A DNA stretch of 64,000 nucleotides from Burkholderiales bacterium (lineage in GTDB: Bacteria > Pseudomonadota > Gammaproteobacteria > Burkholderiales > Burkholderiaceae_C). Below are positions 1,487 to 34,080 of the stretch, in pieces. The translations under genes and the position numbers were made by a program. The notes below the pieces were generated by a model, which was not told the origin of the DNA, searched no databases, and worked only from the letters and a program-made list of their open reading frames with translations. The stretch spans positions 30,983 to 94,982 of the forward strand of contig CANJJE010000011.1 of the NCBI GenBank assembly GCA_947474755.1. Reading direction: 5' to 3'. Positions within the stretch are counted from its first letter, which is position 1. Each line of letters begins with the position of its first letter.

Positions 1487-2692
1487 TCAGGCCGCCAGCG
1501 GCGGACGGGCTCGCCGCGCATGTGCCGCCAGCGCGGCAATGACCTGCGCGATGTCGTCATCGCTTTGTGCAGCGCTCAAACTGATGCGCACCAGGCTCAG
1601 ACCTGACGGCGTGGCCGGCGGAATCATCAGGTTGGTGTAGATGCCCGCATCCAGCAGGCTTTGCCACAGCGCCAGCGCATCGTCGCGAGAGTCGAAGACG
1701 ATCGCTGCAACCGGGCCGGGGGTCGTCGTGCCAAGCCGGTAGCCCAGCTTGTTCAACTCGCCGTAAACGCGCTCCGCGTGGCGCCACAGCCGAGCACGCA
1801 GATCGTGGCCCTGCAGCACTTTACGCAGCGCCTGATGCGTTGCGGCAATCACGGGCGGTGGCGGCGAGGCGGTGAAGATGTAGGGTCGGCTGACCATGCG
1901 CATGAATTCGACCTCTGCATGTCGGCCGAGGCAGAACCCACCAACGCCGCCGAGGCTCTTCGAGAAGGTGCCGACGATGAAGTCAACCTCGCCGAGCAGA
2001 TCCTGTGCTTCGCAAAGGCCCAGGCCGCGGGGACCGAACGCGCCGAAGGAATGGGCCTCGTCGACCAGCAGCCAGGCTCCGTGGCGCTTCTTGATCTCGA
2101 CGATCTCGCGCAGCGGCGCCCGGTCGCCCAGCGTGCTGTACAGGCTTTCGACGACGATCAACGTGCGGCTGGCGGCCTCACCCAAGCGCTCCAGACGTCG
2201 CTCAAGATTTTCAGCGTCGTTGTGGCGAAAGCGGATCGTCGTCGCATGGCTGAGCCTGCAACCATCGTGGATGCTGGCATGGCTGTCCGCGTCGACAAGC
2301 AGCGTGTCGCCTTCGCCAGCCAGTGCCGACAGCGTGCCGAGGTTCGCCTGATAGCCGGTCGAAAAGACGATGGCCGTCGGCCAGCCGAAAGCACTCGCGA
2401 GGGAGTGCTCCAGCGCCCTGTGGCCGGCATAGTTACCGCTGGCCATCCGCGAGCCCGTGGTGCCGGTGCCCAGAGACTCGATTGCCGATATCGCTGCAGC
2501 ACGACAGTCTGCGTCGTAAGTCAGGCCGAGGTAATTGTTGGTGCCAGCGAGAATTACACGGCGGCCATTGATCGTGGCAGAGGTGGCCGAATGCACGTCA
2601 TCCATCGGGGTGGCGATCGGGGCCACCCGGCTGTTTTCGGCCAAGCTGGCCGCGAGGCCGCGCTGAACGGCAAATTTATCGAGAAGACTCAC
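1487..2692 (-). CDS. PLP-dependent alpha-oxoamine synthase, serine palmitoyltransferase-like
   Basis: Motifs NNYLGL, STGYQANLG, LVDEAHSFG and GTFSKSLGGVGGF (PLP lysine) are present. The start is chosen at GTG 2692, which overlaps the ACP stop (GTGA). The longest ORF extends to 2728. Confidence 0.85.
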   Translation of the reverse strand: MSLLDKFAVQRGLAASLAENSRVAPIATPMDDVHSATSATINGRRVILAGTNNYLGLTYDADCRAAAISAIESLGTGTTGSRMASGNYAGHRALEHSLASAFGWPTAIVFSTGYQANLGTLSALAGEGDTLLVDADSHASIHDGCRLSHATTIRFRHNDAENLERRLERLGEAASRTLIVVESLYSTLGDRAPLREIVEIKKRHGAWLLVDEAHSFGAFGPRGLGLCEAQDLLGEVDFIVGTFSKSLGGVGGFCLGRHAEVEFMRMVSRPYIFTASPPPPVIAATHQALRKVLQGHDLRARLWRHAERVYGELNKLGYRLGTTTPGPVAAIVFDSRDDALALWQSLLDAGIYTNLMIPPATPSGLSLVRISLSAAQSDDDIAQVIAALAAHARRARPPLAA

Positions 2693-2982
2693 GGTGCGCC
2701 GCGCTTCAACTGGACGATGCCAGCACACAGTTCATCGATGGTTCGAGCCTGAGCCATCGTCTCCACGGGAATCGACAGGTCGAGCCGGTCTTCGATCTCC
2801 ATCACGAGGTCCATGACCTCGGCTGAATCCAGATCAGCCTCCTGAGCCAGATCGGCGTCTCCCCGGATCCCCGCCGAATCGGGGCGTATCACCCCCAACG
2901 CCTCCCGGATGGTCGACTCGACCGAGGCTACGGTTTCAGTCAAGGACGTGGACCCCACTGCAGTGCTGGACAAAGGATTCAC
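2689..2982 (-). CDS. acyl carrier protein (dedicated, cluster-associated)
   Basis: 97 aa and acidic, with a DLDSAEVMDLVMEIEDRL phosphopantetheine-attachment-type motif. ATGA overlaps the upstream FAAL stop and GTGA overlaps the downstream AOS start. Confidence 0.85.
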   Translation of the reverse strand: MNPLSSTAVGSTSLTETVASVESTIREALGVIRPDSAGIRGDADLAQEADLDSAEVMDLVMEIEDRLDLSIPVETMAQARTIDELCAGIVQLKRGAP

Positions 2983-4859
2983 GATGCTGCGTTCTCGACT
3001 TCAACAGGTGCACGCTTGGCATGGCCGACGAACCTGCCACGGCACTCCGTGGAACCCTCGGCACTTCGGCGCTCCAAGAACTCCTTGCGAGCGGTGCTGC
3101 GTGACAGCTTGCCCGACGATGTCCGGGGCAGGGTATGCGGCGGAACGAGTTCTATCAGGCAATGGATGCCAAACTCGACATGGATGGCCTGCTGGACCCG
3201 TTCGGCCAAGCTGGCCAGTTTGCGGGGATCGGCTTCTCGACATTGCACGACCAAAACTGCCAACTCACCTTCGTCGGGATCGGTGATCGAGAACGCCGAG
3301 GCATCGGTTGGCCGTACTTCAGGCTGCTGCTCGGCCAGGTGTTCCAGGTCCTGTGGCCAGATGTTTCGTCCCTTGATGATCATCAGATCCTTGGCGCGAC
3401 CGGTAATGTGCAGCGAGCCCTTGGCCTGATAGCCGATGTCGCCCGTGTCCAGCCAGCCGTCAGCCGACAGCACCTCGCGAGACGCGACTGGATTGCCGAA
3501 GTAGCCAGACATCAGGCTTGCGCCGCGCAGATGGATGCGGCCGCAACGACGCTCCGGCAAAGGTCGGCCACGTTCATCCCGGATTTCCATCTCGTAGCCT
3601 GGGAGTGGTTGGCCGCAATTGATGAAGGCCTTGCCTTTCGATGGTGTTCCTTCGGCCGAGACTGGAATGGCTTCGCCGTAATGCGCCAGTCGGTCGACAT
3701 CGACGATATCGCTGCCTGCGCCACCTTCAAGGGGCGCGAAGCTGACCGCCAATGAGCACTCGGCCATTCCGTAGCACGGCAGAAACGCCTTTTCATTGAA
3801 ACCCGCCGACGCCAGCACCCTCGCGAACTCGTGCAAGGTTTCAGGGTGAATCATCTCGGCACCGACGCCGGCCACTCGCCAGGCCGACAAATCGAGCGAC
3901 TCGGTGTCTGCCGAGCGCAGGCGTCGTGCGCACAGCGTGTAGCCAAAGGGCGGACTGAAAGACACCGTGCAACGGTTCAGCGACATCAGCTTGAGCCACA
4001 GACGAGGACGCATCGCGAAATCGCGTGTCGGCAGGTAATCGACCGAGCGCTGGGTAGCGACGCAGCCCAGCACGATACCGACCAGGCCCATGTCGTGATA
4101 GTAGGGGAGCCAGGAGCAGAAACGATCCTCGGGCGTCAACCGAAAGCCGTGGTTGAAGATGGCTTTCAGATTGGCCATCACAGCAGACTGCGTGATCATC
4201 GTGCCGCGAGGAAAGCGGGTGCTACCCGAGGTGTACTGCAGGTAGGCCAGCTCACCGGGCTCGGGCGGCCGCGGTACCGTGTCCAGAGCGGGCAGCACCG
4301 AGAAATCCTGCGCAGTGCCGACCAGCGTCAGCGACAGACCCTCGCTAGCCTCGCGCAGGAAGCCGACAAACTCTGGTGGCGCGAACGCGGCCACTGCCTG
4401 ACAGTCACGAACCAATTGACGCAGATGGCGGATGTAGGCCTCTCGCCCGCCCAGGTGCACCGCAGCAGGCAAAGGTACGGGTACCAGCCCGGCGTACTGA
4501 CAGGCGTAAAACATCACTGCAAAGTCGGGATGGGTGTGGGCAACAAGGGCCAGCCTCTCACCACGTCCCAGCGGGGCGAGGCGACGCGACATTTCGAGAG
4601 CGCGCGCGCGCAGTTCCCGGTAGGGAAGCGTGGAGACCAGCGCTCCACGGCCGTCGTAGTAGTTGAAGCCGGAATCGCCACCAGCAGCGTAATCAAGCGC
4701 CGCAGCAAGTGTCGGAAAGTCCGCACTACGCAGAGCAATGCCGCTCGCGGTCGGGGTCAAACTGGCGTGAAAAGGTGCAGCAGGATTCACTGGAAACACC
4801 TCTGACGGCCATGCCGGCCTCGCAAGTAATCTTTCAACCCTCACCCTTTCGTACTGCAA
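2979..4859 (-). CDS. fatty acyl-AMP ligase / acyl-ACP synthetase (adenylate-forming enzyme)
   Basis: Motifs YLQYTSGSTRFPRG, WLPYYHDMGL, GWLDTGDIGY and TSSGKLSR are present, with a FAAL-like N-terminus. The longest ORF starts at TTG 4859, there is no upstream ATG, and the exact start is uncertain. Confidence 0.85.
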   Translation of the reverse strand: MQYERVRVERLLARPAWPSEVFPVNPAAPFHASLTPTASGIALRSADFPTLAAALDYAAGGDSGFNYYDGRGALVSTLPYRELRARALEMSRRLAPLGRGERLALVAHTHPDFAVMFYACQYAGLVPVPLPAAVHLGGREAYIRHLRQLVRDCQAVAAFAPPEFVGFLREASEGLSLTLVGTAQDFSVLPALDTVPRPPEPGELAYLQYTSGSTRFPRGTMITQSAVMANLKAIFNHGFRLTPEDRFCSWLPYYHDMGLVGIVLGCVATQRSVDYLPTRDFAMRPRLWLKLMSLNRCTVSFSPPFGYTLCARRLRSADTESLDLSAWRVAGVGAEMIHPETLHEFARVLASAGFNEKAFLPCYGMAECSLAVSFAPLEGGAGSDIVDVDRLAHYGEAIPVSAEGTPSKGKAFINCGQPLPGYEMEIRDERGRPLPERRCGRIHLRGASLMSGYFGNPVASREVLSADGWLDTGDIGYQAKGSLHITGRAKDLMIIKGRNIWPQDLEHLAEQQPEVRPTDASAFSITDPDEGELAVLVVQCREADPRKLASLAERVQQAIHVEFGIHCLIELVPPHTLPRTSSGKLSRSTARKEFLERRSAEGSTECRGRFVGHAKRAPVEVENAAS

Positions 4860-4923
4860 GCCTTTGGCCGCCGGGAAATGTAATTTGAGCGCGCCCGGGA
4901 TGCAATCAAACTGTCATGGTTGC

Positions 4924-4937: not shown

Positions 4938-4939
4938 AA

Positions 4940-5010: not shown

Positions 5011-6966
5011 TCACGCTGTAGTGGTATCCAGAAACTCCGCAAGTTGCTCCAGCGTTGGGTAGTCGAACAAGTCGGTGACTTGGACACGCTGCGGAAACTC
5101 TAGCTCTATCGCTTCGTGGATCCGAGCCAAAGTGAGCGAGTTGAGGTCAATTTCCAGCAAGTTGGTCTGAGGTGTCAGTTCTCGGCCGACGATGAAGCCC
5201 GCGCAGATTTGCTGCAATCGTTGCTCCGTCGAGGTTCCCGTGCGTTGCTCGGCAACATTTCTTTGCGCAAGGAGCCGCTCAATTTCGGCCAGAGGTGCGT
5301 CGAATTCGCCCAGTTCGAACGCCTTGGCGAGCGCATAACGCTGTAATTTGCCGCTGCTGGTCTTCGGGATTTGCCGCACGGGCACCACATGTGCAACCTC
5401 CAGGCCGGTTTGCTGCAGCATCCTGCGCCGCAGTTCGATCACCTTGGGCAGGAACTCGGCGACCCCCGCCCTGTGAATCACGAAGAAGGCCAACTCCTCG
5501 GTATCAGCCACCGGGCCGCGCACGCCTGCTGCGGCGACGCGGTTGGCTTCAATATCGACGACCTCCGCCGCGATCCGTTCCAGATCGTGAGGGTAGTGGT
5601 TCTGCCCGTTGATGATGACCAGATCCTTCTCTCGCCCGGCTATGACCAACTGGCCTTCCAAGATGAAGCCCAGGTCGCCAGTCGCCAACCAGCCGTCGGC
5701 CGAGATGATCTCTGCGCTTCGCGCTGGATCTCGGAAATAGCCTGCGGTGACGTTGTCGCCGCGGATCAGCAAGTGACCCAGCATGCGCTCACCAAGTGTT
5801 TGCCCGGTCTCATCGACGATACGCAACTCGACCCCGCTCAACGGCAATCCGAGCTTGACCAGTTCGGATACCCGGCCGCCATTTTGTGCTTCGTGGCGCA
5901 CTGGCTCGCCGACGCGCAGCCGGGTTGGGTCGACGACGACGGTTTCGAGGGGGGTGCCGCGCATTGCGAAGCTGACAGCCAGGCTCGCTTCGGCAAGACC
6001 GTAGACGGCAAACATGGCGCTTGGCTTCAGGCCGTGGGGTGCCATCGTGCGCATGAAACGGCGGCAGACTTCCGCCGAGATCGGCTCCGCCCCGTTGAAG
6101 ATCAGTCGCACCGATGACAGGTCCAGGCCCTGCGGTGGTCGATGTGCGTACTGGCGAAGGTAGTGCTGGAAGCCGAAGTTCGGCGAACACAGCACGGTAC
6201 AGCGCCGCTGGCTGGCCAGATCCAGCCACAACAGCGGGCGCCGTGCGAACAGCTCGGTGCGCATGATCGCGTGGTTGATGCCGCTGGCCAGCTGGGTCAG
6301 GTGAAAGCCGATCAGCCCCATGTCGTGTGACAACGGCATCCAGCTCAGCACCGAGTCCTGGTCGGTGAAGGCGGCGCCTTTGATGATCGAGGCGATGTTC
6401 GCCGTGAGGTTGCGGTGCGTGAGCATCACGCCCTTCGGGTCGCCCGTCGAGCCCGATGAATACTGGATGAACGCGAGGTCCCTCGGATCAGGGTTCACCG
6501 GCACGCCTGGCTCGCCGGTGATGTCCAAGGCTCCCACGATCATCGTGCGCGCGCGAAGCTGCTGCCCTTCGTTGTCCAGGCGGTGTGTTGCGATGAAGTC
6601 GTCGAGGCGGTCCAGCGTCGGGGCGTCGATGCAGACCCGTGATTCATCGAGTTGTGCAAACACCCGCAGCAGCTTGCGCCAGTGTTCGTCTGCGACACCT
6701 GGTGCCAGCGGCACCGCCACGATGCCGCCGAGCACGCACGCCCAGAACATCTCCACGAAGCGTTCGTTGTCAGCAATGAACAGGATCAGCGTATCGCCAC
6801 GTTTGAGGCCATGGCGTTGCAGCGCGCCCAGCGCGCCAATGGCGCGCTGGCGCAGTCGCCGGAAACTCATCGTGCGCTGCTCGTTCTCGCCCTCGATGAA
6901 GGTGATCTGTCGATCCTCGCGCACGTCGGCCGGCAAGATCGCGTTGAGTGTCTCGAAGGGCAGCAT
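5011..6966 (-). CDS. fatty acyl-AMP ligase fused to a C-terminal carrier-protein (ACP/PCP) domain
   Basis: Motifs FIQYSSGSTGDPKG, WMPLSHDMGL, GWLATGDLG and TSSGKLQR are present. The C-terminal ~80 aa contain IDLNSLTLARIHEAIELEF (carrier Ser motif). The start is taken at the internal ATG 6966 (MLPFETLN), 11 nt after the P450 stop. The upstream extension to 7140 overlaps the P450 gene. Confidence 0.85.
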   Translation of the reverse strand: MLPFETLNAILPADVREDRQITFIEGENEQRTMSFRRLRQRAIGALGALQRHGLKRGDTLILFIADNERFVEMFWACVLGGIVAVPLAPGVADEHWRKLLRVFAQLDESRVCIDAPTLDRLDDFIATHRLDNEGQQLRARTMIVGALDITGEPGVPVNPDPRDLAFIQYSSGSTGDPKGVMLTHRNLTANIASIIKGAAFTDQDSVLSWMPLSHDMGLIGFHLTQLASGINHAIMRTELFARRPLLWLDLASQRRCTVLCSPNFGFQHYLRQYAHRPPQGLDLSSVRLIFNGAEPISAEVCRRFMRTMAPHGLKPSAMFAVYGLAEASLAVSFAMRGTPLETVVVDPTRLRVGEPVRHEAQNGGRVSELVKLGLPLSGVELRIVDETGQTLGERMLGHLLIRGDNVTAGYFRDPARSAEIISADGWLATGDLGFILEGQLVIAGREKDLVIINGQNHYPHDLERIAAEVVDIEANRVAAAGVRGPVADTEELAFFVIHRAGVAEFLPKVIELRRRMLQQTGLEVAHVVPVRQIPKTSSGKLQRYALAKAFELGEFDAPLAEIERLLAQRNVAEQRTGTSTEQRLQQICAGFIVGRELTPQTNLLEIDLNSLTLARIHEAIELEFPQRVQVTDLFDYPTLEQLAEFLDTTTA

Positions 6967-8309: not shown

Positions 8310-9014
8310 ATGCGCACGACAAGTGCCCCTGCGATGACCGTGTCGGTGCTGATCACCTCTGAGTTCGTGTTGTGGCCCGCGCTCGAATCGCAGTGGCTGG
8401 CGAGCCTGCCGTCGCCGCGGCGCCTGCAGATTGGCGCTTGGCCCGACGCGCAAGCGCGCCATCGCTCCCTGGTCGGCAGCCGCCTTCTGGTTCATGGGCT
8501 GCGGCGACTGGGGTACGGGGACGACGCACTGGCCACGCTGCGCTATCCAACGAATTCCCGACCGACGCTGGCATTGCCGGTCAGCTTCAGCCTGTCCCAT
8601 TGCGATGGACGCATCGTCTGTGCGCTGTCAACGCAGGGTGCGGTCGGCATCGATGTCGAGGCGCTGGGGGGTCTGGTCGCTGGAGACTTCCATCTGTACC
8701 TCAGTGCCGCCGAACGCGCTTGGGCCGGGCGCAGCACACGCCGTTTCTATTCGGTGTGGACCCGAAAGGAGGCCGTGGCCAAGGCGGCCAGCCAGAGGGG
8801 TCTGCGCGATGTGGCTCGGGTCGACACGACACACGGTGAGAACCTCGCTGCCTTTGCCGGAAGCCTGTGGCATACCGCCAGCGTGCCCGTTGGCCGGCGC
8901 CACGTGGCCCATCTGGCGCTGGCCGAGGCGCCTCGCCAACTGAGCTTTCATCGACTGGCCAGGTCGGTGTTGGAGCGCGACATGGCGGTCACGGAATCCG
9001 AGGCGGTACGGTAA
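8310..9014 (+). CDS. 4'-phosphopantetheinyl transferase (Sfp type)
   Basis: Motifs FSLSHCDGRIVCALS, GIDVE and FYSVWTRKEAVAKA are present. It is divergent from the P450 gene. ATG 8310 or 8334 is the likely start, and the 516-aa track ORF is an artefactual extension. Confidence 0.8.
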   Translation: MRTTSAPAMTVSVLITSEFVLWPALESQWLASLPSPRRLQIGAWPDAQARHRSLVGSRLLVHGLRRLGYGDDALATLRYPTNSRPTLALPVSFSLSHCDGRIVCALSTQGAVGIDVEALGGLVAGDFHLYLSAAERAWAGRSTRRFYSVWTRKEAVAKAASQRGLRDVARVDTTHGENLAAFAGSLWHTASVPVGRRHVAHLALAEAPRQLSFHRLARSVLERDMAVTESEAVR

Positions 9015-15252: not shown

Positions 15253-15256
15253 AGTC

Positions 15257-15715
15257 TCAGCCCGTTTGCCGCACCCAGGCGTCTCGCAACTGCGCCAGCA
15301 GCGCGTCGCTCGTGGCGGTATCGGGTGCCACCGCGGCATCGAGCATCGGTGGGCCGGGCCAGCCAGCGTCCGGGAAATCGGTGTTGCCGAAGCGGCGCGA
15401 GCCTTCGTAGCGCGGGATCACGTGAAAGTGCACGTCCGGGTCGACCATCATCAGCATCAGGTAGTTGATCCGCTCGTATCGCACGACATCGCGCAGCGTG
15501 CCCTCGATGCAGCGCACCACATCACGCATCTCGGCGTAGGCCTGAGGACTCACATCGGCAAACGCGCGCACAGGCTCGCGACAGATCAGCACCAGCGAGC
15601 CCAGCGCGGGCTGCTTCGGGCGCAGCAGGACGGTCCAGCGATCAGTCTGAGCGACTCGTGAGGCCGGGTCACCGAACTTGATCTCGGTGGCCGTCTTGGG
15701 TGCAGCATCAGCCAT
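15257..15715 (-). CDS. HIT (histidine triad) family protein
   Basis: Histidine triad DVHFHVIPRY. ATG at 15715. Confidence 0.8.
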   Translation of the reverse strand: MADAAPKTATEIKFGDPASRVAQTDRWTVLLRPKQPALGSLVLICREPVRAFADVSPQAYAEMRDVVRCIEGTLRDVVRYERINYLMLMMVDPDVHFHVIPRYEGSRRFGNTDFPDAGWPGPPMLDAAVAPDTATSDALLAQLRDAWVRQTG

Positions 15716-15734
15716 GGTCAATTCAAGTGTTTCC

Positions 15735-26125: not shown

Positions 26126-27118
26126 TCACAACCATGAGCGGGCCCGGTACCAGGCCACTGCGTCGGCAAAGCCCGTGTCGAGGTCGAACTGTGGCGCCCA
26201 ATCCGGTGCTGTGGCCAGCTCGCCGACAGATACCGACCAGTCTTCATGCCGCAGCTCGCGCAGTTTCTGTGAATTGAGCATGTTCGCCAGACCCAAGCTG
26301 CGGCCCGCGTCACCGACCAGCGCCACTGCCCGCAGCAGCGCCTGCGGTGCGTGTACCAACCGCGCACGTTCGTTGCCGACTGCCCGCGCCGCGGCACCCA
26401 GAACTTCGTGCCAGTGGTAGCCCTCAGGCCGTGCATCGGCAGCGGTCAGCACCTGCCCACGCGGTTGCAGGGTGGCCAGTCGCTCGATCAGGCGTACCAG
26501 ATCGTCGACATGGATCATCGCGGCGCGTGCGCTTGGCGATCCGAGCAGAGGCACCAGGCGTTGCCGGGCGAGTTGAAAGAACACCAGCGTTTCGCGGTCA
26601 CCCGGGCCGTACACCGCTGGCGGTCTCAGCACCGTGACGCGTTCGCCGAGCATCGCGCGCACCACATCCTCGCCTGCGCGCTTGCTTGCGGCGTAATCGG
26701 AGAGCTGCGGCTCGCGAGCGGCGAGGCTTGAGACATGCAGGAAGCGCGTGGCAGGGGCCACGCGCTGCACGGCCTCAGCAAGCGCCCGCGTGCCATCGCG
26801 GTTGCTCTTGAAGAATTCGGTTCGATCCGCAGCCTTGATGAGGCCTGCGACATGAATCACCACCCCTGCGCCATCGACCAGTCGCTCCAGGGCGGACGTA
26901 TTGGCCAGCGAGCCTGCCACCACCTGCGCTCCGTGGCCGCGCCACTCGCTGATGCTGGGCTCACTGCGCAACAGCAGCCGCACCGACCAACCCCGGCCGA
27001 TCAACATCCGTACCAGATGCTGACCGATGAAACCGCTGGCCCCGGTCACGGCGGCCAGCGGAGCAGTCTCACCCGTCTTCGTGATCAACATCGGCTGTAG
27101 GGGCTGCGAGGCAGTCAT
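26126..27118 (-). CDS. NAD(P)-dependent SDR-family epimerase/dehydratase/reductase
   Basis: Rossmann motif VTGASGFIGQHLV and a YAASK catalytic motif. Confidence 0.85.
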   Translation of the reverse strand: MTASQPLQPMLITKTGETAPLAAVTGASGFIGQHLVRMLIGRGWSVRLLLRSEPSISEWRGHGAQVVAGSLANTSALERLVDGAGVVIHVAGLIKAADRTEFFKSNRDGTRALAEAVQRVAPATRFLHVSSLAAREPQLSDYAASKRAGEDVVRAMLGERVTVLRPPAVYGPGDRETLVFFQLARQRLVPLLGSPSARAAMIHVDDLVRLIERLATLQPRGQVLTAADARPEGYHWHEVLGAAARAVGNERARLVHAPQALLRAVALVGDAGRSLGLANMLNSQKLRELRHEDWSVSVGELATAPDWAPQFDLDTGFADAVAWYRARSWL

Positions 27119-27200: not shown

Positions 27201-28085
27201 ATGCGCAACACGGTCTTCATTCACACCAATCCGAAGCAGGTGATCGGTGCGCTGGTGGCACAGCATGCGCTACGTCGCCATAGCGCAGCACCCGAGCGCT
27301 TCGATGTACGCATTCTGCAAACCACCGATTTCCCCGCCTTGCAGCGCTTCGAAGGGCGCCGCTATCTGCGCGAGGGGCGTGAGGTGGTGTGGCTCAACGA
27401 CGACTTGCAATCCTTCACTCCGCTGCGGTTTGCCGTGCCGGAAGCCATGGGCTATGCAGGTCGTGCCGTCCTCATCGATCCCGACGTCTTTGCGCTCGGC
27501 GACATCAATGAGCTGCTGGATCGCGACATGGGGGGCGCGGCGGTCATGGCGCGGCAGATGGACAGTGACTTTCGCCGTCCGCTCCACTACGCATCGAGCG
27601 TGATGTTGCTCGACTGCGCGCGCCTGGCGCACTGGCAGTGGGAAGCCGATTTCGAGCGGGTGTGCCGCGGCGAGCGCGACTACCGCGACTGGATGTGGCT
27701 GCTGCTCGAACCGCCCGGTAGCGTGGCGCCGCTGGCGTCGGTCTGGAACGACTTCGACAGACTCGCGGCAGACACCCGGCTGCTGCACAACACCCACCGC
27801 CGCACCCAGCCGTGGAAAACCGGTCTCCCATCGGACTTCACACCGCGCGGGACGACATGGAAGTCGCGCATGGGGATCTGGCTGCGCTCGATCAAGGGAC
27901 GGGGTGCCGGGCTCTACAAGCCGCACCCCGATCCAGCGCAGGAGATTTTTTTCTTCCGACTGCTCGGCGAGTGTCTCGACAACGGATCGGTGCCTGCAAC
28001 GCTGCTCAAGGAAGAGATCGACCGCCAGCACATCCGCAGCGACGCCCACGACTGCATCGCCCGCGCTCGCCAGCCTGCGACCTGA
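27201..28085 (+). CDS. hypothetical protein, glycosyltransferase family 8-like
   Basis: The block FTPLRFAVPEAMGYAGRAVLIDPDVFALGDINELLDRDMGGAAVMA matches the general GT8 pattern around the DxD motif (here DPD). Confidence 0.5.
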   Translation: MRNTVFIHTNPKQVIGALVAQHALRRHSAAPERFDVRILQTTDFPALQRFEGRRYLREGREVVWLNDDLQSFTPLRFAVPEAMGYAGRAVLIDPDVFALGDINELLDRDMGGAAVMARQMDSDFRRPLHYASSVMLLDCARLAHWQWEADFERVCRGERDYRDWMWLLLEPPGSVAPLASVWNDFDRLAADTRLLHNTHRRTQPWKTGLPSDFTPRGTTWKSRMGIWLRSIKGRGAGLYKPHPDPAQEIFFFRLLGECLDNGSVPATLLKEEIDRQHIRSDAHDCIARARQPAT

Positions 28086-28111: not shown

Positions 28112-29170
28112 TCACCCGCTGATCGTCTGCGTGATGCGAGCGAGCGTGGCGTGGCGTTCGCGCGCGGCCACTTCCTGAGGCCGTCCGTCGGCACCGAACA
28201 GGCCGGCGTCGGCGAGGGCGCGTTGCAGGTGCCCGATGTCTCGCACGGCCGAAAGCAGGCCGACATCGACTGCCCATCCATACAGGCGCGCCATCGCGGA
28301 CGTGGGTTTGCGCTCCGCTGCCGCGCGCCAGGCCGAAGCGAGTCGCCATCGCCAATGCGGTTGCGCTGGCAGCATGAACGGCGTGACCGTGTGGCCGCTG
28401 AGCAGGGCTTCCGTCAGCATCGAGGCACTGTCGGCCGTGACGATCAATCGATCGGCCTCGCGCAGCAGCGAGGCGTACAGGTTTTCGCCTTGGCCCCAGC
28501 GCGAGACATGTGCGGGAGCGCACAGGTTCGCTTCGATGATGGTCATGGTGGAGTCCGTCGTACGCGGGCTACCCAGTACCCAGGCGCTGCCGCCAGTCTC
28601 ACGCACCTGTTCATTCACTGTTTGCGCCAGCAAACAGGCGCTGGCATCGTTGAGCACATAAGGGCGGCTGTTTCCTCCCACCAGCACCACGGTCCAAGGG
28701 CGCGGCATGCGCGTTGTCTGGTCGGCCAGCGATGCCGTAGTGGATTCACTGGACGCGGGTACGACGAAAGGCATCAGGTTGGTGAGCACATTGGCGCGGC
28801 TGGGCACTGCGTATTGCGGGGTCGTGACGATCAGGTCGAACCAGGCCAGCGGTGCCCAGGGGCGGTTGATATGGATCAGCCGCGTACGGTCCTGCGATTG
28901 CTTGCGGATCCAGCGTGCCGCCGGGACGGATTTGCGGCCTGCAGCCAGTACCGCTTGCGGCCAGGGGGGATGCAGCGCGCATTCCGTGCGCCAGCTCAGG
29001 CGGCCGTTGCCCAGCACCAGCGGCGGTAAACGAGCTGCGCGGTTGAACTGCAGCGGGATGACACGGTATGGCCGATTCATCGCTTCGGCGATGGCCAGCA
29101 ACTGCTGGTTGTCGCCATGCTTGGTACCCAGCAGGACCCAGACCGGTACGGTGTTCAGCTCGGATGACAT
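28112..29170 (-). CDS. ELM1 / DUF1022 (mitochondrial fission ELM1-like) family protein
   Basis: Contains VWVLLGTKHGDNQQLLAIAEAM and the downstream FDLIVTTPQY. ATG at 29170, with an alternative GTG at 29185. Confidence 0.65.
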   Translation of the reverse strand: MSSELNTVPVWVLLGTKHGDNQQLLAIAEAMNRPYRVIPLQFNRAARLPPLVLGNGRLSWRTECALHPPWPQAVLAAGRKSVPAARWIRKQSQDRTRLIHINRPWAPLAWFDLIVTTPQYAVPSRANVLTNLMPFVVPASSESTTASLADQTTRMPRPWTVVLVGGNSRPYVLNDASACLLAQTVNEQVRETGGSAWVLGSPRTTDSTMTIIEANLCAPAHVSRWGQGENLYASLLREADRLIVTADSASMLTEALLSGHTVTPFMLPAQPHWRWRLASAWRAAAERKPTSAMARLYGWAVDVGLLSAVRDIGHLQRALADAGLFGADGRPQEVAARERHATLARITQTISG

Positions 29171-29261: not shown

Positions 29262-30170
29262 TCAGTCAGTTGCAGCCATTGGAAACTTGCGCCACCGCCG
29301 GTGGTGCCAGCTCCACAGCTCCGGGTGTTGCAGCACCTGCGCTTCGGTCAGACGTGTCAGGAAATCCACATCGGCTTCCAGCGTCCCCTGTCCGATCGTC
29401 AGTTGTGGCTGGATTTCAAACCGCCATACCGGCTCTGCCCCCACTGCGACCATCGGCAGCACCGGCGAGCGTGAAACACGTGCCAGTTGAGCGGGGCCCG
29501 CAGGCATCGGCACGTCCTTGCCAAGGAAGCGCTGCGTGACGCCGTCCTCGGCCTTTCGCAGGCCTTGATCCATCATCAGGAACAGCACGCGGCCCTGCTT
29601 CAGCGCTGCCAGCATCTGGCCGTAGGCGCGAATGCCGCCATTGGCCAGGATGGCCTGGATGCCGTAATGCTCCAGGCCGGTCTGGAAGAAGCCGGTCGAC
29701 ATCATCCGAGCCTTGCGATACAGCAGCGACACCGGCCAGCCTTCCTGCGCCAGCCGAACCATCGCCAGACTGGCGTTGCCCATGTGGGTGGCCAGCACGA
29801 TCGCGCCACGCCCCTGGCTCATGGCCGCGCGCAGGTGTTCCAGGCCGCCCAGCTCGCAGCGCGCCGCCAGTGTGCTTTCGTCCTGGCGCTGGTCGAACAT
29901 CGCCATGACCTCCATCACTGCGCCGTTGTTCACCCGGTAGGCCTGGAGCAGCAGCGCGCGCACGGACGGGTCATGCGATGGTCGCCCCAGCACCTGGGCG
30001 ATCTCGCGCTGCAGTCGCTGGCGCTCTCGCCATCCGAACCAGAACTGCAAATCGCCCAGCCAGCTGCCGAGGGTGCGCGCATGCCGGAATCCGATGACGC
30101 GCAACAGCGTGCGCAGGCTGAGGAACATCGCGCGGCGACGCCGACGTCGCAGATCCCGAACCCAGTTCAT
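29262..30170 (-). CDS. LpxL/HtrB-family lipid acyltransferase
   Basis: Contains GAIVLATHMGNASLA, RKARMMSTGFF, MLAALKQGRVLFLMMDQG and the following GPAQLARVSRSPVLP. The family pattern is that of late lipid A acyltransferases. Confidence 0.75.
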   Translation of the reverse strand: MNWVRDLRRRRRRAMFLSLRTLLRVIGFRHARTLGSWLGDLQFWFGWRERQRLQREIAQVLGRPSHDPSVRALLLQAYRVNNGAVMEVMAMFDQRQDESTLAARCELGGLEHLRAAMSQGRGAIVLATHMGNASLAMVRLAQEGWPVSLLYRKARMMSTGFFQTGLEHYGIQAILANGGIRAYGQMLAALKQGRVLFLMMDQGLRKAEDGVTQRFLGKDVPMPAGPAQLARVSRSPVLPMVAVGAEPVWRFEIQPQLTIGQGTLEADVDFLTRLTEAQVLQHPELWSWHHRRWRKFPMAATD

Positions 30171-31940
30171 TCAGGCGTGCGCCGCGATTGGGGTGGGGTG
30201 GACCTGCTGCTGCAAAGCGGTGAGCTGTCCATCGGCCAGTCGGTACACGCAGTCGGCCGCCTGAATCAGCAGGTCCTGGTGCGCGACGGCCAGGATCGTC
30301 AATTGGCCCCTCAGGTGCTTGACGGCCTCGATCACCGCTGCCTGCGCTTCTGCGTCGAGATGGCTGGTGGCTTCATCGAGGATCAGGAGCCGTGGCTCAT
30401 GCACCAGCGCGCGGGCGATGGCCAGGCGCTGGCGCTGCCCACCCGACAAGCGCGATCCCCCTTCGCCGACCCGGGTCTGCAGCCCGTCGGGCATGGCCTC
30501 GACGAAACTGAGTGCGTCGGCGGCGCGCAACGCCGTGCGGATCTGCTCATCACTGATCCCGACCTCACCCAGCGTCACGTTGTAGGCCACTGATTCGTCG
30601 ACCATCACCGATTCCTGCGGCACGTAGCCTATCTGTCGCCGCCACTGGCGCAGATCCAGCTCGCCGAGCTCCACACCATCGACCAGGATGCGACCGCCGG
30701 TGGGTCTCAGCAGGCCGACGACCAGGTCCAGCAAGGTGGTCTTGCCCGCGCCCGACGGCCCGATGATGACCGTCAATTGCTGCGCCGGGATGGTGAAGTT
30801 GCCGTGCTCGACGATCGCACGGCGCTCGCCATGGCTGAAGTTCACATTCTCGAAACGTATGCCCTCGACGAGGTCCACCCGTTGATCGCCGCCCGGGGGT
30901 TCGACTTCGGCGCTGGCGTTGTTGATGTGATCCATCACCGACCAGTAGGCGCTCTCGCGCACGACGACCTGCTGGTAGGCGCGCTGGGCCTTCGAGAGGT
31001 AGCTGACGGTGCGCGCGAGCAGGAACACCATCACCAGCACCTCGGCCAGTGGCAACTTCAGCACCACCAGACTGAAGAAGAAACCAACGCCGACCAGGAT
31101 CGCCAGCAGCGGCTCCTGCAGCGCGGTCATCGCCTCTCGACTGATCACCTGACGGCGCAGGGCCCGTCGCAAGGCCCGCGTCTGGTCGGACAGCAAGGCA
31201 TCGACGTGGTCCTCGCGCGCCATGGCCTTCAGCGCCTTCGCCGCTGCCATCTGCCCGCCCATCACCGACAGCAGCGATTTCAGCAGCACGGTCTGCTGCC
31301 GCCCCGCTTTCAGCGAACTGCGCACCAGCGCGTGCAGCGACAGCAGCAGCAAGGCACCCGCGATGATCGCGGCCACGCCGGCCTGCCACGAAATCGACAG
31401 TGCGACACCCAGGAAGATCAGGCCATTGAGCACCATGGCTGCCATCTCGGCGCTGTGCTGGAACGCTTCGGAGGCTCGTTGTGCTTCACTGGCGACGGCG
31501 TTGGTCAGCCGTCCGACGGACTGATCCAGGTAGTGGGTCCAGCGTGCGGACATCACCGAGCGGATCAGCGCGAGCCGCAGGTCGGTGGCAATGTTGGCGA
31601 CGGTGTAGCCAACTTGTCGGTTGGCAACGAGGGACAAAACCGCCTTCAGCGCGATCAGCACCGTCGACAGCGCCAACAGCACCGCCGTGGTGGGCTGCAG
31701 CCCCAGGAACTGCGTCACCTGCACCGCGATCTTCTCGGGCATCGACGGTGTGTGCGCACCGGTGTTCGTGGCGAACGACAGCATGGACAGCAACATCGAC
31801 ATGCCCAGGCTGTCCGTCAGCCCTGCGACAAAGACCGCCACCAGCGCTGCCACACTGCGCCCCGGGTACGCGCGGACAAACGCACCGATCATCTGCAGGG
31901 CGCGACTGGGCTGCGCCTTGGCTTTCTGCTTCTTGCTCAT
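30171..31940 (-). CDS. ABC transporter, fused permease/ATPase (MsbA-like exporter)
   Basis: Six-TM N-terminal half. Walker A GPSGAGKTT, signature LSGGQRQRLAIARAL and Walker B LLILDEATSHLD are present. Confidence 0.9.
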   Translation of the reverse strand: MSKKQKAKAQPSRALQMIGAFVRAYPGRSVAALVAVFVAGLTDSLGMSMLLSMLSFATNTGAHTPSMPEKIAVQVTQFLGLQPTTAVLLALSTVLIALKAVLSLVANRQVGYTVANIATDLRLALIRSVMSARWTHYLDQSVGRLTNAVASEAQRASEAFQHSAEMAAMVLNGLIFLGVALSISWQAGVAAIIAGALLLLSLHALVRSSLKAGRQQTVLLKSLLSVMGGQMAAAKALKAMAREDHVDALLSDQTRALRRALRRQVISREAMTALQEPLLAILVGVGFFFSLVVLKLPLAEVLVMVFLLARTVSYLSKAQRAYQQVVVRESAYWSVMDHINNASAEVEPPGGDQRVDLVEGIRFENVNFSHGERRAIVEHGNFTIPAQQLTVIIGPSGAGKTTLLDLVVGLLRPTGGRILVDGVELGELDLRQWRRQIGYVPQESVMVDESVAYNVTLGEVGISDEQIRTALRAADALSFVEAMPDGLQTRVGEGGSRLSGGQRQRLAIARALVHEPRLLILDEATSHLDAEAQAAVIEAVKHLRGQLTILAVAHQDLLIQAADCVYRLADGQLTALQQQVHPTPIAAHA

Positions 31941-32944
31941 GGCCGAATGAAACGCAGGCGCGGGCCTGTGCTGATGATGACGGGCTGGCTCGGGTCAGCG
32001 TCGAAGGCTTCGCCGTCCAGCATGTAGCGGGTCAGGCCACCAATCGTCACCTGATTGCAGCGGCCACTGAGGTAGCCGTTGTCGGGGTTCATGGCCCGCG
32101 CGTATCGCCCGGTCAAGAGCCGAGGCATCGATCGCCAGAAGCGCGGTGCTGCCTCGCTGACGGAGGTCAGCCGCACATCACCTTGGCCGTGCGGCGCATA
32201 CGGATCGAACAGGCCGGTGCGGTGCAGCAGCGTGGTCGCCAGCAGCAGCCGGATGGCTCCGCTCTGTCTTCCGCGAGCGCCGGCATCGACATCCAGATGT
32301 GGGCAACTCATGCCGGAACGCCCGATCAGCGATCGCGCGCCCAGGCGCAGAAGGTAAGCCATCGTGCTGAGGTCGCCGTGGGATTTGAGCTCAGCACGGT
32401 GTTGATGACACTGGCGGATCACGCTGTCGATCAGCGCTGCCGAGAAGAAAAAGCCGTGTCGCATCGGCGCGCCGGAATGCGCGATGCGCAGCGCGCAGCG
32501 CTCTTCCACCGCAGCGTCCCAGCGTTGCTCACGGGCGAGCAGCAGCGCCCGCTTCAAGATCGGCAAGGCCCGGCCGCCTGGCACCAGGTCGGCCGCTGTC
32601 AGGTTGGTGCGGCCGCCAGGCAGCACCAGCAGATCCGGTGTCCAGGCGCCTGCGGGCAGGTTCGACAGCTGATCGACGATGGCACAGACCGTACCGTCGC
32701 CAGCCAGCAGCATGACCTGGCGCTGGCGCCGCGCGAGGATCGTCGCGATGGCGGCGCGCGTGGCGTCCGGGCTGTCGACGATGACCACCTCGGCGCCGTG
32801 AGACTTCCCCAGCGCCGTGGCCTGTGCGGCCAAGCCCCGCGACGCGTTGAAGCTGCGCGGGTTGACGATCAGGCACGGGGGCGTGCTTGCCGCGGCGACA
32901 ACCGCGCAATCCGGCGTCGCCAGTGCAGGATCGCGCGCGTTCAA
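31937..32944 (-). CDS. diacylglycerol-kinase-fold lipid kinase (DAGK_cat domain; sphingoid/ceramide-kinase-like candidate)
   Basis: Contains CLIVNPRSFNASRG and the downstream LLAGDGTVCAIV (GGDGT-type motif). The start is inferred at TTG 32944, overlapping the desaturase stop. Its own stop overlaps the ABC start (ATGA). The longer track ORF to 33403 overlaps the desaturase gene. Confidence 0.65.
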   Translation of the reverse strand: MNARDPALATPDCAVVAAASTPPCLIVNPRSFNASRGLAAQATALGKSHGAEVVIVDSPDATRAAIATILARRQRQVMLLAGDGTVCAIVDQLSNLPAGAWTPDLLVLPGGRTNLTAADLVPGGRALPILKRALLLAREQRWDAAVEERCALRIAHSGAPMRHGFFFSAALIDSVIRQCHQHRAELKSHGDLSTMAYLLRLGARSLIGRSGMSCPHLDVDAGARGRQSGAIRLLLATTLLHRTGLFDPYAPHGQGDVRLTSVSEAAPRFWRSMPRLLTGRYARAMNPDNGYLSGRCNQVTIGGLTRYMLDGEAFDADPSQPVIISTGPRLRFIRP

Positions 32945-34080
32945 GAGCGCCCGTTGCCCGGCGACCAGGCCCGCATCGCCGACTGGCCACGAGGGGTCTG
33001 CCGCGCCGACTGCCACAACTCGCGCACCGCGGTGAAATAGCTGTCGCGGTTGCAGCCTCGGTAGAGCGCGTCCGCCGGGAGACCGGCCATCAAGCGCCGA
33101 TGCGCCTCCCCCAGGCGGTGGTAGGGCAGGGCAGGAAACATGTGGTGCAGTGCGTGGTAGCGCAGGCCGACCGGGAACATGAATACCGTCAGCCAGGTCT
33201 GCCCGGTGATGTTGATCGACTCGGCCACCTGTTCTGCCATCGTCATGCGCTGGCCGCCATTGACATAACGGTGTGCCGCCAGGTTGCGCACCCAGTTCAG
33301 CGCCAGGGTGAAGGCCAGCAGCGCATAGCCCATGAAGAACTGCGTGATGCTGACGGTGCCTTGCCACATCAGGAACGCAATCGTCGCCAGGTACGCGAAG
33401 CACAGCGCCTCGACGACCTGCAGGTGCTGTTCATCGCGCTTCGGAAAGCGCTTGGCGTAATAGGGGTTCGACACCGCCGCGGAGACCCGCGTCAGCACCC
33501 ATTCACGCATGCCGCTGTGCAGCCAGGAGAGCGGGCCCAGCACGCCGAAACGCACGATCATGAAAAGCGGCAGCAAAGGGGCCTGGCCGACGTACTTCAG
33601 CGTCTCGCTCTGCGGCGAGGAGCCGAGCGGCAGGTACTCGCCGTCGGCCGGCGTGCCGAACTGCAGGTGGTTATGGTGCTCGATGTGGTTGCGGTACAGC
33701 ACCCAGGGCATCAACAGGGGTATGCCCAGCAGCAGGTTCCAGGCGCGCTTGAAGCCTGTCATCTGCCCGCCCGGCATGTGGACGATTTCGTGGATGAATG
33801 TTCCCACGCGGAAGAAAAGGACGCTGGCGCCGAGGAAGGCAAAGATCTGCAACGCGCCCCAGGCGGGCGCGGTGAAGTAGATCGCCGTCAACGCCCAGGC
33901 CGCGGTCGAACTCAGCAGAAGATCGGTCCAGTAGATCGCCGGGGAGCGCTGGAACAGGTCGCTGATCAGGCTGCGGGCCCGTTCCTGCCAGGCGGGGTCG
34001 ACTGCGATGCCTGGGGAAGCACTGGCGGCGGGCTCGTCAAGGGTGGCGGTAGCGGTCACGATGAAGCATGAAAAAAGCAA
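32941..34080 (-). CDS. membrane fatty-acid/sphingolipid desaturase family protein
   Basis: Three histidine boxes are present (HEIVH, HIEHHNH, HALHHMFP), and the N-terminus is hydrophobic. The start is uncertain (TTG 34080 or GTG 34059). Confidence 0.8.
   Translation of the reverse strand: MLFSCFIVTATATLDEPAASASPGIAVDPAWQERARSLISDLFQRSPAIYWTDLLLSSTAAWALTAIYFTAPAWGALQIFAFLGASVLFFRVGTFIHEIVHMPGGQMTGFKRAWNLLLGIPLLMPWVLYRNHIEHHNHLQFGTPADGEYLPLGSSPQSETLKYVGQAPLLPLFMIVRFGVLGPLSWLHSGMREWVLTRVSAAVSNPYYAKRFPKRDEQHLQVVEALCFAYLATIAFLMWQGTVSITQFFMGYALLAFTLALNWVRNLAAHRYVNGGQRMTMAEQVAESINITGQTWLTVFMFPVGLRYHALHHMFPALPYHRLGEAHRRLMAGLPADALYRGCNRDSYFTAVRELWQSARQTPRGQSAMRAWSPGNGRS

Follow-up and report, generated by a model that had tools for sequence, protein, structure and literature searches.

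A probable Burkholderiales version of the Caulobacter-type phosphosphingolipid locus, with predicted lineage-specific additions

The 64,000-nucleotide stretch of Burkholderiales DNA analysed here (the window; contig CANJJE010000011.1, positions 30,983 to 94,982) contains a 32.5-kb gene cluster, extending from position 1487 to ~34059, that very probably represents the Burkholderiales version of the Caulobacter-type anionic phosphosphingolipid system with lineage-specific additions. The window comes from a metagenome contig of 102,776 bp (ENA ERZ27277814, k141_1207158), and the cluster is flanked by housekeeping genes (Table 1). An initial annotation, made from the sequence letters alone, had placed the cluster at 1487-34080, in agreement with these boundaries, and essentially all of its genes and domain calls were reproduced at or near the same coordinates by Pfam and NCBIfam searches and by the gene calls of the source contig. 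The first fatty acyl-AMP ligase (FAAL) gene is real, though the end assigned to it (4859) was merely that of the longest open reading frame (ORF), the gene call being 2979-4790. Among the proposed glycosyltransferases, the GT4 and ELM1 assignments held, whereas the GT8-like one (27201-28085) is weak. Overlapping stop and start codons had been ascribed to most gene junctions; 11 of the 21 same-strand junctions overlap (by 4 or 1 nt), so that 'most' was overstated, and with about 10 transcription units distributed over both strands the description 'a few long operons' holds only roughly. Two genes had been overlooked, encoding a HIT-family protein and a metallophosphoesterase, as had the identities of the proteins encoded at 17893-18840 (CpgC) and 19962-21083 (the CC_1167 orthologue).

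The reference system is the 17-gene sphingolipid cluster of Caulobacter crescentus, CC_1152-CC_1168 (CCNA_01210-01226), described by Olea-Ozuna et al. 2024 (PMC11324152, main text and S1 Text). This encodes a nucleotidyltransferase (CC_1152), a CofC/MobA-like nucleotidyltransferase (CC_1153), the bacterial ceramide synthase bCerS (CC_1154), LptG2 and LptF2 (CC_1155 and CC_1156), a HIT protein (CC_1157), a calcineurin-like phosphoesterase (CC_1158), the CDP-alcohol transferase CpgA (CC_1159), the ceramide kinase CpgB (CC_1160), CpgC (CC_1161), Spt (CC_1162), AcpR (CC_1163), CerR (CC_1164), AasR (CC_1165), a Wzx-like flippase (CC_1166), a TagF-like protein (CC_1167) and LptC2 (CC_1168; PMC11324152). 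Ceramide phosphoglycerate and diphosphoglycerate are its products (PMC9393093). Orthology was referred to loci of Caulobacter species congeneric with C. crescentus, which have exactly the published CC_1152-CC_1168 gene order; one of these, L040, was validated by the domains encoded at two of its positions, DAGK_cat at CC_1160 and LptC at CC_1168. Orthologues at CC_1152-CC_1167 positions exist for fourteen window proteins, 11 of them at 41-67% identity, with lower values for LptG2, LptF2 and the kinase. Reciprocal tblastn of the L040 proteins against the whole window returned the expected genes only.

The two clusters share a logic that runs from ceramide synthesis through a kinase and CDP-alcohol and nucleotidyl chemistry to a private LptFG pair. 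They also share gene order and orientation across a block that comprises the two nucleotidyltransferases, bCerS, LptG2, LptF2, the HIT protein and the phosphoesterase, followed by CpgA and CpgC. In contrast to the Caulobacter cluster, the window is without LptC2 and the Wzx-like CC_1166, has Spt, AcpR and AasR apart from CerR, and carries a kinase of a divergent AGDG/SGDG clade that is relocated beside an ATP-binding cassette (ABC) exporter. It further adds a CpgA paralogue, an LpxL-like protein, the ABC exporter, a desaturase, a module of a FAAL fused to an acyl carrier protein (ACP) with a cytochrome P450 and a phosphopantetheinyl transferase (PPTase), and a glycan island of ~10 kb.

Table 1. 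Genes of the sphingolipid cluster and its surroundings. Positions are those of the window. Identities are to proteins of the Caulobacter species loci.
Feature	Position	Strand	Family or other evidence	Caulobacter position	Identity (%)
MoxR/Bat operon (left border)	324-1310 and further
Spt (serine palmitoyltransferase)	1487..2692	-	NF047599 equivalog	CC_1162	50-51
AcpR-like dedicated ACP	2689..2982	-	PF00550 PP-binding	CC_1163
AasR (acyl-ACP synthetase/fatty acyl-AMP ligase)	2979..4790	-	NF006624; alternative start 4514	CC_1165	46 (across 93% of AasR)
Second FAAL, fused to ACP domain	5011..6966	-	AMP-binding + PP-binding
Cytochrome P450	6978..8282	-	PF00067, 255 bits
Sfp-type PPTase	8334..9014	+	PF01648 ACPS
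Nucleotidyltransferase	9161..9829	+	NTP_transferase/NTP_transf_3	CC_1152	65-67
MobA/CofC-like nucleotidyltransferase	9831..10607	-	NTP_transf_3	CC_1153	45-48
Putative bCerS (bacterial ceramide synthase)	10604..11734	-	Synteny, GNAT fold	CC_1154	53-55 full length (45, partial match, in L041)
Second CDP-alcohol phosphotransferase (CpgA paralogue)	11731..12945	-	PF01066, full catalytic motif		35-38 to CC_1159 orthologues
LptG2	12942..14006	-	PF03739, 216 bits	CC_1155	33-35
LptF2	14047..15339	-	PF03739, 218 bits	CC_1156	39-42
HIT-family protein	15257..15721	-	PF01230	CC_1157	54-56
Calcineurin-like metallophosphoesterase	15735..16658	-	PF00149	CC_1158	42-45
CpgA (CDP-alcohol phosphotransferase)	16784..17896	+	PF01066	CC_1159	49-52 (residues 9-369)
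CpgC	17893..18840	+	Synteny + reciprocal match (E = 1e-67)	CC_1161	45-48
Weakly GT-B-like protein (unk364)	18840..19934	+	Glyco_trans_1_2, E = 0.013 only
TagF-like CC_1167 orthologue	19962..21083	-	Synteny + reciprocal match (E = 3e-82)	CC_1167	41-44
GT4 glycosyltransferase	21265..22383	+	Glyco_trans_1_4, Glycos_transf_1; rare in related loci
CMP-nonulosonate synthetase fused to KdsC/KDN-9-P-type HAD phosphatase (NeuA-HAD)	22397..23548	-	CTP_transf_3 + HAD
NeuB-family nonulosonate(-9-P) synthase	23548..24435	-	PF03102, 219 bits; without SAF domain
'Surface carbohydrate biosynthesis protein'	24432..25904	-	TIGR04396, 370.9 bits (cut-off 125)
CerR (ceramide reductase)	26126..27118	-	Epimerase/NAD_binding_10 SDR; reciprocal E = 1e-53	CC_1164	45-47 (over 94%)
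Weak GT8-similar protein	27201..28085	+	PF01501, E = 0.0046, under Pfam cut-off
ELM1-family protein	28112..29170	-	PF06258, 158 bits
LpxL-family acyltransferase	29262..30128	-	PF03279, 109 bits
Half-size type ABC exporter (MsbA/HepA-like), candidate flippase	30171..31940	-	ABC_membrane + ABC_tran
Predicted ceramide kinase, divergent CpgB clade	31937..32944	-	DAGK_cat	CC_1160	26-27
Membrane fatty-acid desaturase/hydroxylase family	32941..34059	-	PF00487, 98 bits
amiC (right border), then tsaE, queG	34105-35445
XerC/D-type tyrosine recombinase	37084-38112
Phosphomannomutase/phosphoglucomutase	38240-39631
WaaA Kdo transferase	39669-41015
RTX-repeat protein	44948-53764	-	12 HemolysinCabind stretches
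C39-peptidase ABC exporter	56865-59174; 55447-57747 region	- (first range)
GT28/UDPGT/EryCIII-like glycosyltransferase	62291-63643	-

All five genes of Caulobacter-type ceramide synthesis (Spt, AcpR, AasR, bCerS and CerR) are present in the locus, as first proposed. Spt reaches 570.6 bits against NF047599, the NCBIfam equivalog for beta-proteobacterial serine palmitoyltransferase (cut-off 500), and falls well short of the bioF (325.7 bits, cut-off 426) and Kbl (271 bits, cut-off 460) models. A comparison with the Protein Data Bank (PDB) yields 410 bits to the serine palmitoyltransferase of Sphingomonas wittichii (2x8u) and at most 201 bits to BioF and Kbl. This alpha-oxoamine synthase thus groups with Spt, and identification as BioF or Kbl is rejected by both the NCBIfam equivalog and the PDB scores. 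Its pyridoxal phosphate-binding lysine lies in the motif GTFSKS, at residue 245. Alternatively, the product of the enzyme could be non-sphingoid, for example a metabolite of the BioF/Kbl type, a signal of the CqsA type or a sulfonolipid, in which case the locus would not be a sphingolipid pathway at all. The fold and PF00155 domain common to all these enzymes allow for this, but the alternative is highly improbable: the Spt equivalog is passed while the ALAS and CqsA-type models, like those of bioF and Kbl, remain far under their own cut-offs, the scores of solved serine palmitoyltransferases are double those of BioF, Kbl or cysteate acyltransferase, and the locus has syntenic orthologues of bCerS, CerR and the kinase.

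The remaining genes of the sphingolipid pathway's first steps are similarly recognizable. AcpR, which has a DLDS attachment motif, and AasR (768 bits against NF006624, cut-off 600) lie directly upstream of Spt, with 4-nt overlaps between each pair of neighbours. In the Rhodobacteria, spt is likewise found with a dedicated ACP and an acyl-ACP synthetase upstream (PMC9386255). CerR is the sole match in the window to the protein at the CC_1164 position, and the initial suggestion that this epimerase-like gene is the reductase is borne out by identity, reciprocal best hit and synteny.

The protein at 10604-11734 has no match in Pfam, NCBIfam or by PDB sequence search. It had been proposed as a bCerS-type N-acyltransferase, and synteny-anchored orthology with reciprocal best hits upholds this; its gene adjoins the CC_1153 orthologue, and the LptG2 orthologue lies beyond one intervening gene. 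The AlphaFold model (pLDDT 76.6) finds tandem-GNAT enzymes as its best Foldseek matches (probability 1.0, TM score 0.55-0.70). The protein is therefore a putative bCerS, predicted to N-acylate 3-oxosphinganine or sphinganine. In the protein collection searched, its family numbers more than 7,900 homologues, for which NCBI-derived records give 'dATP pyrophosphohydrolase'. Since the protein has a GNAT fold and is orthologous to bCerS of Caulobacter, this name appears to be a misannotation that has spread between records, and the label in public databases needs correcting. A literature search linking this annotation to ceramide found nothing relevant.

Genes for head-group synthesis are equally well represented. 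Both CDP-alcohol transferases have the complete D(x)2DG(x)2AR...G(x)3D(x)3D motif. In the protein at 16784-17896 this reads DTVDGKLAR...G...D...D, and this protein is identified as CpgA by the combination of transferase motif, family-specific N-terminal domain and orthology; it has matches in 252 representative clusters at E <= 1e-30. CpgC has no Pfam match, either for the window protein or for its Caulobacter counterpart, and CC_1161 is described as Tam41-like by InterPro in the literature. The CC_1167 orthologue matches nothing in Pfam or NCBIfam; CC_1167 itself is reported as a TagF-like glycerophospho/glycosyltransferase by InterPro. Because 10604-11734, 17893-18840 and 19962-21083 lack Pfam and NCBIfam matches, their identities are assigned through synteny and orthology.

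The initial annotation had described an LptF/LptG-like pair, and these proteins are sphingolipid-specific paralogues: they are syntenic with CC_1155 and CC_1156 and just miss the canonical equivalogs (LptG2, 228.9 bits against TIGR04408, cut-off 240; LptF2, 196.6 bits against TIGR04407, cut-off 230). The true start of LptF2 is probably ~110 nt downstream of the ORF start. In recent experiments, LptF2 and LptG2 were required for sphingolipid transport and bound LptB (bioRxiv 10.64898/2026.04.12.717747). Two irregular copies of this region were observed elsewhere. In Piscinibacter koreensis, LptF2 and LptG2 are called as one fused protein of 762 aa (L171, 6502-8790), which may be a natural fusion or may stem from gene calling or a frameshift. 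In the complete genome of Caulobacter sp. UC70_42 (L041, 4550-5206), the bCerS match covers 58% of the protein and LptG2 was not detected, which points to a disrupted, rearranged or frameshifted copy.

The core genes are co-located across three proteobacterial classes. A scan of 185,579 species genomes with an alignment of the CpgA-like protein 16784-17896 and diverse representatives yielded 80 loci from Burkholderiales, from gammaproteobacteria of the Nevskiales and Steroidobacteraceae type, and from many alphaproteobacteria, including several Caulobacter species. All window proteins were compared with these by tblastn, together with gene orders; gene presence per locus is limited mainly by the 10-kb flanks that were covered. 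Within these limits, the HIT protein and CpgC are each found in 71 of the 80 loci, the phosphoesterase in 68, LptF2 in 67, the nucleotidyltransferase designated NT-B in 63, bCerS in 60, CerR in 51 and Spt in 45, and LptG2 is syntenic in 56. This co-location is far beyond chance, and the concern that the gene set might not be conserved in relatives is dispelled. Two cultured strains, Piscinibacter koreensis ID0723 and Xylophilus sp. GOD-11R, have a contiguous arm from Spt, AcpR, AasR and FAAL-ACP through CpgC, in the window order.

There is good support for a beta-proteobacterial origin of the window itself, on the basis of protein identities to named relatives. The closest is Burkholderiales bacterium PBB1 (91%, one marker), followed by isolates and metagenome-assembled genomes of Rhizobacter, Methylibium and Piscinibacter, then by Variovorax and Xylophilus. 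Identical gene order on independent contigs of other samples (L002, L006 and L088) rules out an assembly chimera or artefact.

In the initial annotation, the joining of a ceramide module to CDP-alcohol chemistry, sialic-acid-like sugars and a private LptFG pair was considered undescribed, all the more so in a beta-proteobacterial background. This does not hold, since CC_1152-CC_1168 already combines the ceramide module, the CDP-alcohol chemistry and the LptFG pair, and a copy has been published from Nitrosomonas. Orthologous sets are known from Nitrosomonas eutropha (beta), Azotobacter vinelandii and Pseudomonas luteola (gamma; PMC11324152, Fig 7 and S2 Table). Like the window, these carry Caulobacter-type genes outside the alphaproteobacteria, including LptF2/G2 and CpgA/B/C. 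However, they are compact, with 13 of the 17 Caulobacter genes and no extras described, and the N. eutropha set is split over three regions, whereas the Burkholderiales type of the window is contiguous and expanded. What is new relative to the published clusters is the block of LpxL-like protein, ABC exporter, divergent kinase and desaturase, the FAAL-ACP/P450/PPTase module, the second CpgA and the variable glycan island. To a specialist the core is unsurprising and the interest lies in these accessory modules. A search for sphingolipids in Burkholderiales or Betaproteobacteria found nothing relevant in the literature covered.

Several points weigh against reading the locus as a Caulobacter-type sphingolipid system with additions. 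The kinase at 31937-32944 is only 26-27% identical to the Caulobacter-locus kinase and reads AGDGT where the Caulobacter type has the GGDG ATP-binding motif. No LptB, LptC2 or Wzx-like flippase is found within the 64-kb window, and a search of its whole length with the Caulobacter-locus LptC2 and Wzx-like CC_1166 proteins gave no match. The roles proposed here for the LpxL-like protein, the ABC exporter, the P450/FAAL-ACP module, the second CDP-alcohol transferase and the glycan island come from neighbourhood and family membership only. No lipid data for the organism or its Burkholderiales relatives were found in the literature searched. Moreover, the exact chemistry of CpgC, CC_1152, CC_1153 and CC_1158 is unsettled in Caulobacter too (PMC11324152).

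With respect to the missing transport genes, lptC2 is reported to be restricted to Caulobacter (bioRxiv 10.64898/2026.04.12.717747), and beta and gamma lineages that have the LpxL-like/ABC block are without the Wzx-like CC_1166 and LptC2. The kinase, described initially as a lipid kinase with a DAG-kinase fold, proves to be a member of the CpgB family. A hidden Markov model (HMM) of 39 kinases at the CpgB position, drawn from alpha and gamma loci and confined to sequences of <400 aa (excluding kinase-CpgC read-through ORFs), matches it with 136 bits (E = 1.5e-41) over HMM positions 21-344 of 344, and it is the only match among 285 window ORFs. A PDB sequence search with the protein returned nothing. 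CpgB itself is a biochemically proven ceramide kinase with the GGDG ATP-binding motif (PMC10331486). In a comparison covering the window kinase and loci L008-L027, L078 and L079, A/SGDGT was found in the kinases of all beta and gamma-1 relatives and GGDGT in the alpha type, with the GDG core kept in both. As the variant is common to the beta and related gamma homologues, the protein is assigned to a divergent clade of the CpgB family, and is a predicted ceramide kinase. The two types also differ in position: the GGDGT kinases (alpha) lie between cpgA and cpgC, and the A/SGDGT kinases (beta, gamma and two alpha loci) beside the ABC exporter and desaturase. The A/SGDGT type resembles the SGDG form of sphingosine kinases.

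The right-hand additions form a block with this kinase. Beta and some gamma lineages have the LpxL-like protein, ABC exporter, kinase and desaturase co-conserved with the core; in beta and gamma loci, desaturases with 55-74% identity adjoin the kinase. The LpxL-like gene occurs in 10 of 13 beta loci, in 6 of 9 gamma-1 loci (Steroidobacteraceae/Panacagrimonas-type) and in none of the 58 others. Neither the LpxL-like nor the ABC protein reaches its namesake's cut-off (68.5 bits against the LpxL subfamily equivalog, cut-off 297.8; 225.9 bits against the MsbA equivalog, cut-off 602), and the LpxL-like protein reaches no NCBIfam equivalog; they are therefore named 'LpxL-like' and 'MsbA-like' rather than LpxL and MsbA. 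True orthologues of the second CDP-alcohol transferase (53-79% identity) are restricted to beta and some gamma loci.

It could be argued that the LpxL-like, MsbA-like and ELM1 genes encode paralogues for remodelling lipid A or lipopolysaccharide (LPS), with no function in sphingolipid synthesis. These families are classically associated with LPS, and the organism has a Kdo-lipid A pathway, as the presence of waaA 5.6 kb from the locus shows that it also makes ordinary LPS. Such a role is nevertheless improbable. Beyond the failure to reach any LpxL, LpxM or MsbA equivalog cut-off, in 10 of 13 beta loci and 5-6 of 9 gamma loci the LpxL-like and ABC genes are contiguous with those of the kinase, desaturase and CerR, the gaps often being short. 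Both genes are absent from alpha-type loci, which have a Wzx-like gene instead. The order of events predicted for the sphingolipid does parallel Kdo2-lipid A assembly and export (LpxL/LpxM, WaaA, MsbA, LptB2FG), in that the enzyme families follow the same logical sequence, from a late acyltransferase through an ulosonic-acid module and an ABC flippase to an LptFG extractor. However, the anchor in the window would be ceramide instead of a glucosamine disaccharide, the synthase is of the NeuB type (9-carbon) and not KdsA, and the equivalog cut-offs for LpxL, MsbA, LptF and LptG are missed by all window proteins. The likeness is one of analogy only.

The FAAL-ACP/P450/PPTase module at the left is confined to Burkholderiales and one gamma locus. 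FAAL-ACP is kept in Burkholderiales relatives and L026. Of the beta loci, 8 of 13 have the P450 and 9 of 13 the PPTase; the P450 also occurs in 1 of 9 gamma loci and in no alpha locus. The nearest solved structures to the P450 are CYP97, CYP4B1 and CYP102, of which the latter two are fatty-acid hydroxylases, and the enzyme is a probable fatty-acyl hydroxylase. Together, the three proteins plausibly act as a dedicated hydroxy-acyl donor, by analogy with the rhizobial AcpXL/LpxXL system, in which a dedicated ACP and an LpxL-family acyltransferase bring a very-long-chain hydroxy-acyl group to an outer-membrane lipid. The window differs from this in having a FAAL-ACP fusion as carrier, together with a P450 and PPTase, in lacking FabZ/FabF-type elongation genes and in an acceptor that is presumably a sphingolipid.

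A variable island of ~10 kb lies between cpgC and cerR/lpxL-like. In the window it comprises the weakly GT-B-like gene, the CC_1167 orthologue, the GT4 gene, the NeuA-HAD/NeuB/TIGR04396 genes, the weak GT8-like gene and the ELM1-family gene. Its content changes among relatives, in which GT9, GT4 and sugar-transfer ATP-grasp or 2-oxoglutarate (2OG) oxygenase genes occupy the same site; the site is empty in P. koreensis, and the island is absent in the nearest relative, PBB1. The weakly GT-B-like protein unk364 has a homologue only in L008 (62% identity) among related loci, and the weak GT8-similar protein has homologues in L012 (69%) and in Roseomonas sphingolipid loci (51-52%). Genes of the ELM1 family recur in 13 of the 80 sphingolipid loci, across alpha, beta and gamma classes, and the family may represent a sphingolipid-modifying transferase.

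Within the island, a synthase, a CMP-synthetase and a phosphatase together constitute a nonulosonic-acid module. The NeuA-HAD fusion scores 78 bits with CTP_transf_3, 128 bits with TIGR01670 (YrbI phosphatase, cut-off 107) and 140 bits with NF058599, which is under the cut-off of 180; PDB matches are PpNeuA, mouse CMAS, KdsC and BT1713. NeuB matches solved NeuB, SiaC and SpsE at 72-75 bits. In NCBIfam searches, these proteins reached none of the NeuB, PseI, PseF and KDN9PP equivalog cut-offs. The adjacent TIGR04396 gene is genetically linked to both; its product has a GT-B-like fold (AlphaFold pLDDT 89.7), with UDP-GlcNAc 2-epimerases and TagF as best Foldseek matches (TM ~0.46-0.62), and could be a transferase or an epimerase-like enzyme. 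The presence of the phosphatase and the absence of NeuC/Pse/Leg pathway genes suggest that NeuB condenses phosphoenolpyruvate with a common sugar-6-phosphate, for example mannose 6-phosphate to yield Kdn. The module is similar to the KDN/sialic-acid 9-phosphate pathways of Bacteroides thetaiotaomicron and vertebrates (NANS/NANP/CMAS), which likewise consist of a NeuB-family synthase, YrbI-type phosphatase and CMP-synthetase, and the architecture of the synthetase-HAD fusion resembles that of vertebrate CMAS. Unlike these pathways, NeuB of the window is without the SAF domain and under all equivalog cut-offs, and the module is coupled to a TIGR04396 GT-B-like protein.

The block of TIGR04396, NeuB and NeuA-HAD was followed through a metagenome scan and context look-ups. 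It adjoins sphingolipid genes in at least five independent arrangements in divergent lineages: in the window and L088; in L013 and L016; in L018; in L094 and L134, beside CpgC, kinase and CpgA, with bCerS at 46% identity; in L096, in the order Spt, NeuB, NeuA, TIGR04396; and in L124 and L097. It is not exclusive to such loci, a possibility that was rejected because the block also stands alone amid unrelated genes, in L091 (79% identity), L169 (64%) and L168 (71%). The association is hence recurrent and well above chance, but not obligatory. An isolated TIGR04396/NeuB/NeuA-HAD operon among housekeeping genes of other proteobacteria (L169, 10001-13517; L091, 9917-13509) suggests a portable cassette to make, activate and possibly transfer one sugar.

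These distributions bear on a rival reading that is a serious one, though not favoured, in which the core makes a ceramide phosphoglycerate (CPG)-type sphingolipid while the island (NeuB, NeuA-HAD, TIGR04396, GT4, GT8-like, ELM1 and unk364) serves LPS core, O-antigen or capsule synthesis, its site being merely tolerant of insertions. The free-standing blocks, found in close and moderately close relatives, favour it, as do the changing content of the island and its absence from P. koreensis and PBB1, the proximity of waaA, and the TIGR04396 homologues at 42-47% identity on long contigs, most of which are without sphingolipid genes within 10 kb. The island is, however, enclosed by core genes (CpgC and the CC_1167 orthologue on one side; CerR, kinase and desaturase on the other), and the genes for TIGR04396, NeuB and NeuA follow immediately downstream of cerR, on its strand. 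The number of independent arrangements beside sphingolipid genes is also far above the ~1% expected for a random gene, and sphingolipid loci of all three classes (alpha, beta and gamma) repeatedly contain the ELM1 and GT8-like genes. Since the block is repeatedly beside sphingolipid genes yet alone elsewhere, decoration of the sphingolipid is plausible and unproven, and the balance tips slightly towards the block acting on this lipid. No relevant literature was found on nonulosonic acids on bacterial sphingolipids or on TIGR04396.

Taken as a Burkholderiales version of the Caulobacter system, the locus would encode the following pathway, the core steps of which (AasR to LptF2/LptG2) rest on orthology to experimentally characterized Caulobacter genes. 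AasR would load a fatty acid onto AcpR, and Spt would condense the acyl-AcpR with serine to form 3-oxosphinganine, which bCerS would N-acylate before reduction by CerR to dihydroceramide. The CpgB-family kinase would then yield ceramide-1-phosphate, which CpgC and CpgA would extend to a ceramide (poly)phosphoglycerate-like anionic head group, with the participation of both nucleotidyltransferases, the HIT protein and the metallophosphoesterase. LptF2/LptG2 would pull the lipid from the inner membrane into the shared Lpt bridge, presumably with the housekeeping LptB. Further steps are suggested by context only: the MsbA-like ABC protein may act as a flippase in place of the Wzx-like CC_1166; the LpxL-like enzyme may add an acyl chain, possibly a hydroxy-acyl from FAAL-ACP/P450/PPTase; the second CpgA paralogue may add a phospho-alcohol unit; the desaturase-family enzyme may desaturate or hydroxylate a chain; and the transferases of the variable island may decorate the head group, here including a Kdn- or sialic-like nonulosonic acid. 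The most elaborate version of this scheme, which is doubtful as a whole, is one in which ceramide phosphoglycerate is built into a lipid-A-like, sphingoid-anchored molecule with an extra (maybe P450-hydroxylated) acyl chain, an extra phospho-alcohol and a nonulosonate-capped variable glycan ('ganglioside-like'), which is flipped by the ABC protein and exported by LptF2G2 alongside LPS.

In Caulobacter, bacterial sphingolipids reinforce and can even substitute for LPS. The route of LptF2G2 with LptB for their export has been uncovered only recently, and the present locus shows that the system is widespread in Burkholderiales, including cultured Piscinibacter, Variovorax and Xylophilus. The accessory functions to which it points are a late acyltransferase, a dedicated hydroxy-acyl donor module, an ABC protein that takes over flipping from the Wzx-like one, and a decoration island that is hypervariable and O-antigen-like. 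Should the nonulosonate block indeed act on the sphingolipid, the product would be the first sialic-acid-like glycosphingolipid of bacterial origin, with a bearing on host mimicry, phage and polymyxin sensitivity, and the evolution of outer-membrane lipids.

Beyond the right border of the locus, at a distance of 3-6 kb, lie genes for a tyrosine recombinase, a phosphomannomutase/phosphoglucomutase and WaaA; as a matter of speculation, the second could supply mannose phosphates to the NeuB-type synthase. Further to the right is a gene for a giant RTX-repeat protein of 2,938 aa, which contains tandem repeats of 270 bp and 27 bp (45434-46159) and, with the nearby C39-peptidase ABC exporter, looks like a type I secretion system for an adhesin or toxin. 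The GC content at 52-56 kb is 0.55-0.57, compared with ~0.65. A further glycosyltransferase gene near the window end is apparently unconnected with the cluster.

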